DNA of 64,000 nucleotides, taken from IMG/VR virus record IMGVR_UViG_3300009154_000029; one strand, 5' to 3'. Made by a program: the position numbers and the translations under genes. Under the pieces are notes generated by a model. It was not told the DNA's origin and searched no databases. It worked only from the letters and a program-made list of their open reading frames with translations. Position 1 is the first letter of the stretch. Every line of letters begins with the position of its first letter. This stretch comes from a virus (Duplodnaviria; Heunggongvirae; Uroviricota; Caudoviricetes). Positions 44,425 through 48,460 of this stretch are shown piece after piece.

Positions 44425-44555
44425 ACAGGAGTGGCGGAAGGGGATTAAGCCGGCTTAAGCCCTAATGTTAGACGTAGCCTTTTTAGATTTCCGGGATTTA
44501 ATTAGGTCAGTTGCAGAGTAATCGAACTGTGAAGGTGCGAGTCCTTCCTCCTGTA
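44425..44555 (+). ncRNA. tRNA-shaped RNA (131 nt) with D-loop and anticodon-loop insertions
   Basis: Acceptor ACAGGAG/CTCCTGT+A; T-arm GAAGG-TGCGAGT-CCTTC; Leu-type D elements separated by an inserted hairpin. Confidence 0.7.
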
Positions 44556-44560
44556 CAAAT

Positions 44561-44641
44561 GGCCCTCTGGTGGAACGGTAGACACTTAGGTCTTAGGAAC
44601 CTATGCCGAGAGGCGTGAGAGTTCGAATCTCTCGGGGGTCA
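44561..44641 (+). tRNA. tRNA-Leu(TAG), class II
   Basis: TAGGT-CTTAGGA-ACCTA, long variable arm, canonical T-arm. Confidence 0.92.
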
Positions 44642-46024: not shown

Positions 46025-46175
46025 CAGCCCGGATAAAATGCGTAGATAAAATAGCTGTGAGAGCAGTGACGCAAGGGTACACACTTAGGACAGGTAGAAA
46101 TGCCCATCTCTCTTATGGTGTGTGAAGCGGTTTAACAACCTCGGGATTCCTGATAAATTTTATCATCCGGTTTAA

Positions 46176-46249: not shown

Positions 46250-46507
46250 CAATCAGCCCCGTTGGCCAGGGGATCGAAATACAGGATAGACATCCCATAA
46301 GAACTGTCCGCATATATCCTCCTAATCGTTAGTAGGCACAGAGGCAACACTGGAGGTTTTTTTGTAAATGTTGTAGGTTTGCCCGTTTAAAACCAAATAA
46401 GGTGAAATAGAATGTAAACCCAACAAGTGTATGTTAGTAGTTTACTGACTAACTTAAACTAAATAGGAATATCTTTTTATCGTTGGTGTCCTTAAAAATG
46501 GGAACAT

Positions 46508-46590
46508 AGTCAGGTGGTGGAATTGGAAAGACACTAGGGAAACCTTCCCGAGAATGAAAGTTCATACAGGTTCGAATCCTGTCCTTACTA
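46508..46590 (+). ncRNA. tRNA-shaped RNA with collapsed anticodon loop
   Basis: Acceptor AGTCAGG/CCTTACT+A; T-arm ACAGG-TTCGAAT-CCTGT; anticodon arm GGGAA-ACC-TTCCC. Confidence 0.7.
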
Positions 46591-46602
46591 CAAAAATAAA
46601 AT

Positions 46603-46853: not shown

Positions 46854-46974
46854 CATTGTAGGGAAATAATCTCAAGCAGCCCTAAATGGAGAATCGTTCA
46901 AATCTGTCCAGATATAAGAATGTGCTACCGCCGGTAAAGATTGCTAAGGTTGACGCGGGGAAAGTCCCGACCAT

Positions 46975-47121
46975 AGTCAGGTGGTGGAATGGTAAACGCA
47001 TTAAGATAACAGGACTGTATGTCTGTCTTGGAGTGGATATACAAAGTCAAGCTGTGTTACTCAGATTAACCAAGTGACGAGGGTATGCTTAATTTTACAG
47101 GTTCGATTCCTGTCCTGACTA
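46975..47121 (+). ncRNA. tRNA-shaped RNA (147 nt) with an approximately 80-nt structured domain replacing the anticodon loop
   Basis: Perfect acceptor AGTCAGG/CCTGACT+A; T-arm ACAGG-TTCGATT-CCTGT; closing stem ATTAAG/CTTAAT. Confidence 0.75.
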
Positions 47122-47294: not shown

Positions 47295-47369
47295 GCTCTC
47301 GTAGCCCAATTGGCAGGAGGCAATAGACTTAGGATCTATCCAGTGTCGGTTCGAATCCGACCGAGAGTA
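47295..47369 (+). tRNA. tRNA with TAG anticodon (Leu) but short variable loop
   Basis: ATAGA-CTTAGGA-TCTAT; variable loop CCAGT. Confidence 0.85.
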
Positions 47370-48303: not shown

Positions 48304-48460
48304 TGAAGGATGGTGAAAGCGTACGCATGGCAAACACACCCTCTCGTCTCGGGGGTGGGGATAAAGAAATAGATAGAATGTATGGGGTTGACCACCTGCT
48401 TGCAAGCACTAATGCATTTTATTGAATCTCCTCTTGAAGGTTCGACTCCTTCTCCTTCAG
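48304..48460 (+). ncRNA. tRNA-shaped RNA (157 nt) with D-loop hairpin and an approximately 77-nt branched variable arm
   Basis: Acceptor TGAAGGA/TCCTTCA+G; T-arm GAAGG-TTCGACT-CCTTC; GATATATA at 48286. Confidence 0.75.

Follow-up and report, generated by a model that had tools for sequence, protein, structure and literature searches.

A phage RNA with a tRNA-Leu-like body and a sealed anticodon arm: a probable non-decoding tRNA mimic whose core is found on three acceptor stems

Phage tRNA genes are usually read as aids to translation or as replacements for host tRNAs that have been cut. The viral DNA analyzed here (64,000 nucleotides, hereafter the window) contains an 83-nt gene, RNA 2 (46508-46590, + strand), that is built like a tRNA and ends its anticodon arm in a loop of 3 nt. 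What kind of RNA is this, is it maintained by selection, and what might it do for the phage that carries it?

The RNA 2 gene and its setting

RNA 2 is a cloverleaf resembling tRNA-Leu(UAA). A first, sequence-only reading of this locus had described a D arm, a GAAA-capped arm, a T arm, and the hairpin GGGAA-ACC-UUCCC lacking U33, and all of these are in place (all features on the + strand). The 7-bp acceptor is formed by AGUCAGG (46508-46514), which is common to a second RNA of the window, RNA 3, and defines what we call chassis A (this strand is present in 163 of the approximately 185 chassis elements listed), and by 46583-46589; its single mismatch opposes C4 (46511) to U69 (46586), a position that is G in the family and U in the window copy. 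The 3' segment (46583-46591) continues with the discriminator A73 (46590) and C74 (46591). The flank after A73 reads CAA, and only C74 of CCA is encoded, such that the mature form would need CCA to be completed. The class II, leucine-type D arm (46517-46534) has A14, A15, G18, and G19 and one extra base in its loop, where the position in the A20a register is A or U among homologues. The sealed arm (46535-46551) consists of UA, three G-C pairs, two co-varying pairs, a 3-nt loop, and RA; its hairpin (46537-46549, loop 46542-46544) has 5 bp and no U33, and the distance from the D stem to the variable stem is 17 nt, compared with 19 nt in a canonical class II tRNA. The variable arm (46552-46565) has 4 bp capped by GAAA (46552-46563), then one unpaired A and U48, which pairs with A15, and it is followed by a canonical T arm (46566-46582) with a 5-bp stem and a T loop.

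The program ARAGORN calls RNA 2 a tRNA-Gly(ACC), which is a mis-call. The Rfam tRNA model (RF00005) matches it with 30.3 bits (E 0.002) in permissive mode and misses it in gathering mode, and no other Rfam family matches RNA 2 or its homologues at cut-off. The folding energy of RNA 2 is not above that of shuffled sequences (z -0.13), so the case for this RNA rests on comparison. Its single-sequence ensemble does not favor the D-stem/acceptor register, and a generic scan for promoters and terminators gave a result not above chance.

The window is part of a large phage with tail-fibre-like genes, a ClpB/C-type ATPase, an RNase H-like gene, and a cREC gene. RNA 2 lies inside the tRNA cluster (about 44.4-48.5 kb) and shares the strand of its other genes; a Met(CAU)-type tRNA follows 12 nt downstream. 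The relatives of the window are IMG/VR contigs from uncultured viruses, with lengths reaching 274 kb, and the presence of RNA 2-type elements among them is patchy. The host is probably a member of the Bacteroidota, because the motif TATMTTTG, which fits the -7 consensus of Bacteroidota promoters, is present in 25 copies where 10.2 ± 3.2 would be expected and because 12 of the 22 chassis matches among species genomes fall in Bacteroidota MAGs. All 22 sit in MAGs and are probably binned phage DNA. The cREC gene is in the same cluster as RNA 2, and cREC has been proposed to act in RNA end repair (PMC7824862). RtcB was not found in five carriers, and clustering of the neighboring proteins revealed no family common to the carriers' neighborhoods.

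Other RNAs and RNA-like segments lie on the + strand of this cluster. A structured intergenic RNA with paired ends (46029-46170), between tRNA-Glu and tRNA-Asp, has homologues at 72-86% in L002, L004, L006, and L107 and no Rfam match. Upstream of RNA 2, an intergenic segment with a GGAGG stem and a T run at its end (46255-46365) has homologues at about 75% in L060, L152, and L068. The 120-nt non-coding stretch directly 5' of RNA 3 (46855-46974) ends in a small GC hairpin and has no homologue among the loci compared. A 157-nt tRNA-like RNA with a giant conserved variable arm (48304-48460) belongs to a family other than that of RNA 2 and has homologues in about 20 loci. There is also a tRNA-Leu(UAG) of class I size that has no long variable arm (47295-47369), and a normal class II Leu(UAG) is present at 44561.

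A shared chassis and a core with its own distribution

The sequence-only reading had found RNA 2 almost identical at both ends to RNA 3 (46975-47121, +) and had proposed that one chassis carries different payloads. The identity is 16 of 17 positions at the 5' end and 23 of 25 at the 3' end, and the middle of RNA 3 is unrelated and much longer. The C4-U69 mismatch in the acceptor of RNA 2 was passed over at the time. The idea of one chassis with many payloads is borne out on a far larger scale. Using a T-arm/acceptor pattern, at least 184 distinct elements with the AGUCAGG/CCUGACU-A73 chassis were found in viral contigs; those listed form about 150 payload clusters, and the 182 under 200 nt are 69-191 nt long. 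A15-U48 is present in 135 of the elements listed, only 34 of 116 payloads start with UA, and canonical-looking anticodon arms occur in 7 of 182, which is the chance level (7.8 ± 2.9 by shuffling). One 162-kb phage contig (G058; L292, L312-L321) has at least 14 chassis-A elements, with one payload present twice. RNA 2 has the AGUCAGG/CCUGACU acceptor, the Leu D arm, the ACAGG T arm, and the lack of a canonical anticodon arm that characterize this very large phage RNA family, and it is among its smallest and most tRNA-like members. A literature search, mostly outside subscription journals, found no description of the chassis family or of the RNA 2 core; RNA 2 is a conserved and apparently unpublished RNA.

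Payloads of the G058 contig recur in L050, L064, and L078. Two chassis-A elements with canonical-looking anticodon arms, in L122 near 4958 (+, Ile-UAU) and in L087 near 13101 (-, Lys-UUU), may be true tRNAs. In addition, tRNA-Cys(GCA) genes at L001:3664-3734, L003:1998-2069, and in L233 start with GGUCAGG-UG, one base off the chassis acceptor. An isoleucine origin of the chassis was considered on account of a tRNA-Ile(GAU) from a Flavobacterium relative (L248) with the same first four pairs and A73; it is disfavored by three other Bacteroidota Ile(GAU) loci without such a match and by the D arm, the variable arm, and the whole-body alignment, all of which lead to Leu.

Homologues of the RNA 2 core were sought with patterns based on its middle, in metagenome contigs (two matches) and then in further viral contigs. 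The last pattern fixed only the 3' strand of the D stem and the variable arm and left the short arm free. With the window copy, alignment A2 contains 13 distinct sequences from independent assemblies; five chance pattern matches (L256, L296, L299, L302, and L304) were excluded, as were most of the matches to another of the patterns, which were likewise due to chance. Where the pattern left it free, the short arm was 17 nt in all true matches but one (16 nt); its length is kept in 12 of 13 sequences, and L294 has lost a base and has a 4-nt loop. A model built on the core (R1) gives its training members 86-101 bits, the window copy, itself a training member, 101 bits, and all other tRNAs and chassis elements at most 58 bits. 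When R1 was run on 151 Bacteroidota genomes, no cellular member was found: all matches scored 52-58 bits, and the best five, read individually, were ordinary tRNA-Leu. No exact matches to the window's own 5' end and variable-arm/T-arm junction were found in viral contigs.

The 13 sequences present the core on three unrelated acceptor stems. Group A (the window, L185, L186, L267, L272, and L294) has either the AGUCAGG chassis or a worn version, and in L255 the core is mounted on an acceptor that is unrelated to it and pairs perfectly. Group B (L293, L295, L297, L298, L300, and L303) has a third acceptor and a D-loop hairpin, the architecture of RNA 1 in the window (44425-44555, +), an element of chassis-B type with a D-loop hairpin and G55; this chassis carries the RNA 2 core in other phages. 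The copies in group B are orthologous and syntenic, located behind tRNA-Leu(UAA). The seven copies of group A and L255 have no flanking homology to one another, and in L267 the RNase H-like protein is only 31% identical to that of the window, whereas the RNA is identical at 76 of 83 positions. From the three acceptors and the seven unrelated flanks, we conclude that the core is a portable module. Thus the view of the middle as a payload stands for the family, with its many unrelated middles, and has to be modified for RNA 2, the middle of which is more conserved than its acceptor and is found on three of them.

The acceptor itself is less carefully kept. A mismatch or bulge is present in 5 of the 6 group A copies, the window included, and in 2 of the 15 other chassis-A elements compared. 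A73 is found in 11 of 13 homologues (G73 in L186, C73 in L303). C74 is present in all 13 and U at -1 in 12, neither being fixed by the search patterns, as expected if these RNAs are substrates of tRNA processing. Directly upstream of the group B copy in L295 is a second chassis-B element (L295:1453-1551, -), the middle of which looks similar, by eye, to the payload of a chassis-A element in L050; this is a possible second case of one payload on two chassis.

Comparison of the anticodon arm across relatives, as the sequence-only reading had suggested, revealed an arm that is fully paired throughout and changes by compensation. In alignment A2, 96.8% of the cells are paired and 12 of 24 pairs have double changes, with a covariation score of 0.506 compared with 0.207 for shuffled alignments and at most 0.067 for slid partners, although this signal amounts to few independent events, group B being one lineage. 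Outside the acceptor, every helix is 100% paired, and the D stem, the short arm, and the T stem have double changes. In the short arm, the three G-C pairs are invariant, the fourth pair is A-U, U-A, or U-G, the fifth is A-U or G-U, and the loop is ACC, AUC, GCA, or UCA. D-stem pair 11-24 is U-A in 4 sequences and C-G in 9, double changes occur in 4 of the 5 T-stem pairs, and the closing pair of the variable arm, which is partly fixed by the search pattern, is U-G in 7 and C-G in 6. RNAalifold independently gives the same cloverleaf from the homologues; the extra pairs it adds, U8-A and G9-U, are invariant and uninformative. A14, A15, and G19 are invariant, and positions 18 and 55 co-vary (G18/U55 in 10 homologues, A18/G55 in 3), although U55 is found in 776 of 779 tRNAs called by ARAGORN; this co-change points to selection on the elbow. 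The L-shape, described earlier as intact, is best taken as a predicted one, for which conserved and co-varying tertiary bases speak.

Two other views of the short arm were set aside: a rival AGG-GAAA-CCU tetraloop fold is broken in 3 of 13 sequences, and a likeness of its 3' half to an anti-Shine-Dalgarno sequence is in a stretch that group B changes. The D loop of the elements with G55 (RNA 1, L293, L297, and L303) has a palindromic hairpin tip in 4 of 4 cases, and the three group B copies with U55 have no such tip.

Because 13 homologues share the core and its pairs co-vary, RNA 2 is more than a chance resemblance. The sequence-only reading had taken it for a tRNA-shaped RNA that does not decode and had named an assembly deletion or a decaying pseudogene as what would speak against this. 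The one acceptor mismatch would fit a misassembled or one-off pseudogene of tRNA-Leu, yet the identical short arm recurs in seven other contigs, from different samples and two collections, and the arm is kept by covariation, such that this explanation is hardly credible for the window copy; for the core family, assembly error and simple decay are excluded by these comparisons. Taken together, RNA 2 is very probably a real, selected, non-decoding tRNA mimic.

Relation to tRNA-Leu(UAA) and to other known RNAs

When the body of RNA 2 (positions 8-65) was aligned with 792 canonical tRNAs, the best matches were tRNA-Leu, with Leu(UAA) first; the top match has an AGGGA/UCCCU anticodon stem and the same 3' strand of the variable arm as RNA 2. 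The core is most simply explained as a shortened lower half of a Leu(UAA) tRNA that lost two nt from its anticodon arm, and not as foreign cargo. Like tRNA-Leu(UAA) (RF00005), RNA 2 has a 7/5 cloverleaf, a Leu-type D arm, A15-U48, G18/G19, A73, and a variable arm that is capped by a tetraloop and leaves one base unpaired before U48. It differs in that the anticodon arm is 2 nt shorter, with a 3-nt loop of free sequence and without U33 or purine 37, and, compared with the Leu tRNAs sampled, in its A1-U72 acceptor and the extra D-loop base. Judged from sequence, then, the smallest type of payload, that of RNA 2, is a module of tRNA origin that co-varies and is found in more than one chassis family.

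Could RNA 2 nonetheless decode, as a tRNA-Gly(ACC) or, in the UCA variants, as a suppressor, with its loop opening on the ribosome? A 7-nt segment with the triplet at its center does lie between GGG and CCC, and ARAGORN accepts the RNA as a tRNA. However, the arm of a decoding tRNA (5 bp, a 7-nt loop, Y32-U33, purine 37) is absent: the RNA 2 family has A or G at 33 and U at 37, with no U33 or purine 37 in any homologue, and double changes preserve the complementarity of 32-38 and 33-37. Two nt are missing from the arm, the L294 loop has 4 nt, the leucine anticodon base A35 is absent from all the loops, and a varying triplet on an unchanged Leu-type body would mistranslate. A decoding role is thus very unlikely.

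The aminoacylation determinants of leucyl-tRNA synthetase (LeuRS) are a different matter. The determinants A73, A15-U48, G18-U55, G19-C56, and U54-A58 are all in the window copy, and G18 is present in 10 of 13 homologues; LeuRS from E. coli or Aquifex charges tRNA lacking the anticodon arm (PMC9976931, PMC2377443). Because bacterial LeuRS needs A73 and the D/T-loop core and not the anticodon arm, RNA 2 is probably leucylated. By sequence, it is probably processed and charged without decoding.

Three G-C pairs around a 7-nt segment are found, within the canonical set, only in Met(CAU) tRNAs (13 of 13). RNA 2 shares with initiator tRNA-fMet three consecutive G-C pairs flanking such a segment, and its stem agrees with the UCGGG/CCCGA stem of Bacteroidota initiators at 9 of 10 bases; unlike tRNA-fMet, it has a class II Leu body, no CAU, no C1-A72 mismatch, and an arm one step shorter, and its G-C triplet lies one step nearer the elbow. 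The triplet may be initiator mimicry or inheritance from a Leu(UAA) ancestor with an AGGGA/UCCCU stem.

Among RNAs already described, species 1 RNA of phage T4, a stable tRNA-like RNA from a phage tRNA cluster, is the nearest precedent; it is not a homologue. T4 rnaC, like rnaD, is a small stable RNA gene of this kind (AF158101), and rnaC has paired ends, a perfect T arm, a CAA 3' flank, and no anticodon arm. At 139 nt, it differs from RNA 2 by a long, unrelated middle and by the lack of a recognizable Leu D arm or variable arm. A blastn search of annotated phages returned only T-arm fragments and no T4 match, comparison with rnaC and rnaD by eye gave no similarity, and our literature search found no modular exchange described for T4 species 1 RNA. 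We know of no function for that RNA.

The YrlA Y RNA (RF02553) likewise has a tRNA-like elbow without a working anticodon, and TROVE genes lie near some carriers; the ends of RNA 2 are a tRNA acceptor with discriminator and C74 and not a Ro60-binding stem, RNA 2 scores 19.4 bits against a cut-off of 69, and its homologues do not match either. TROVE/Ro60-like genes (about 545 aa) are present at L322:5150-6781 (-) and L323:1902-3548 (+), in or beside the tRNA clusters of group B carriers, and distant tblastn matches to TROVE occur in the tRNA clusters of relatives of the window phage (L003-L006 and L018). Allo-tRNA, selC*, and tRNA-Sec are non-canonical tRNAs with a long variable arm and an 8/4, 9/3, or 8/5 branch that are known from metagenomes, and some are not chargeable or are unusable in translation (PMC5389517, PMC7609411). 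RNA 2 shares with them the long variable arm and the metagenomic source, whereas its branch is 7/5, as double changes support, and its oddity is the sealed anticodon arm. The 8/4, 9/3, and 8/5 branches were ruled out, as A is retained at 73 where base -1 is other than U; an intron-containing tRNA was rejected because the arm is shorter than canonical and not longer.

Possible roles of the RNA 2 core

The reading we prefer is that RNA 2 is a conserved mimic that descends from tRNA-Leu(UAA) and does not decode, that its core is a transferable module, and that it serves as a decoy; for this statement as a whole we put the probability at about 0.4. An ancestral tRNA-Leu(UAA) would have lost two nucleotides from its anticodon arm, as the alignment suggests, leaving a 5-bp stem and a 3-nt loop. 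RNA 2 would be co-transcribed with the tRNAs of the phage cluster; host RNase P and 3' nucleases would trim its ends, and the CCA-adding enzyme would finish it. The RNA would fold as an L with a normal elbow, be leucylated, if the literature on LeuRS applies, and read no codon. The selected unit, to judge from its distribution, would be the lower half with the elbow; this unit passes from one acceptor frame, and from one phage, to another, and the likeliest route is recombination within the D and T arms, which are conserved. In the host, RNA 2 might occupy a tRNA-recognizing protein, an anticodon nuclease or another tRNA-targeting defense effector, as a competing tRNA shape that would offer no cleavable 7-nt loop. 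VapC, colicins D and E5, and PrrC attack tRNA, with VapC and the colicins acting in the anticodon stem-loop, and several VapC toxins cut tRNA-fMet there (PMC4705866). Support for the decoy step is circumstantial and comes from the Met(CAU)-like G-C triplet, this VapC cleavage of tRNA-fMet, and the neighboring cREC gene. The blemished acceptors and the lost A73 weaken charging as an essential function, and the window allele may be slightly degenerate. It would take the proposal further, and into rather unlikely territory, to see in RNA 2 a mobile anti-defense module, a nuclease-proof decoy that phages trade and re-mount on frames from an exchangeable library of chassis RNAs; on this view, the decoy would jam a tRNA-attacking effector, for example an initiator-cutting one of PIN/VapC type, by its G-C triplet and sealed loop.

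Other roles would also account for parts of these data. The tRNA frame could provide processing and stability to a carrier or assembly module in which the GGG/CCC helix and the GAAA arm are the functional parts. Docking of a GNRA loop on tandem G-C pairs is a common RNA contact, which counts in favor of such a module, and helix and arm could dock on a phage protein (e.g. Ro60/TROVE), on another RNA, or possibly on a second copy. A conserved core with an exchanged acceptor, the TROVE gene 2-5 kb upstream in group B carriers, and the palindromic D-loop hairpin tip in 3 of 6 group B copies fit this possibility; we nevertheless consider it doubtful, since no TROVE match was found in the 64-kb window, G057, G058 (84% complete), or G212, all of them incomplete, TROVE also occurs in relatives' tRNA clusters that yielded no RNA 2-type element, the YrlA score is far below its cut-off, and the core is tRNA-derived. 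A role as an off-ribosome leucine carrier or modulator of translation, in which the leucylated RNA feeds a transferase or ties up LeuRS or EF-Tu, would suit a window copy that has every LeuRS determinant tested (PMC9976931). This, too, we hold to be quite improbable: A73 is not invariant, the acceptor sequence is free and often mispaired, and the invariant G-C pairs and the GAAA arm, both dispensable for LeuRS, would go unexplained.

Finally, the chassis-A copies could be selfish or nearly neutral sequences that spread by recombination among tRNA clusters and have only to come through processing, with the window copy a passenger at the start of decay. Near-identical cores in unrelated flanks, blemished group A acceptors, the phage with at least 14 chassis-A elements and one payload twice, and the patchy presence among relatives are what such spread would produce. 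Against it, changes that break a helix are nearly confined to the acceptor (about 7 of 8 events counted by hand; rough P 0.01, allowing for pattern-fixed positions), the group B orthologues diverge yet keep their pairing and tertiary covariation, and neither a transposase nor a reverse transcriptase was noticed next to the window copy, making this explanation improbable.

RNA 2 thus appears to be a tRNA that has stayed under structural selection, down to a tertiary contact, after the loss of decoding and that is swapped between frames and phages as a module. Its size of 83 nt makes it an easy member of the chassis family to test and a way into the question of the anticodon-less stable RNAs of T4 type. 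If the decoy reading is true, RNA 2 would represent a new kind of RNA-based counter-defense.
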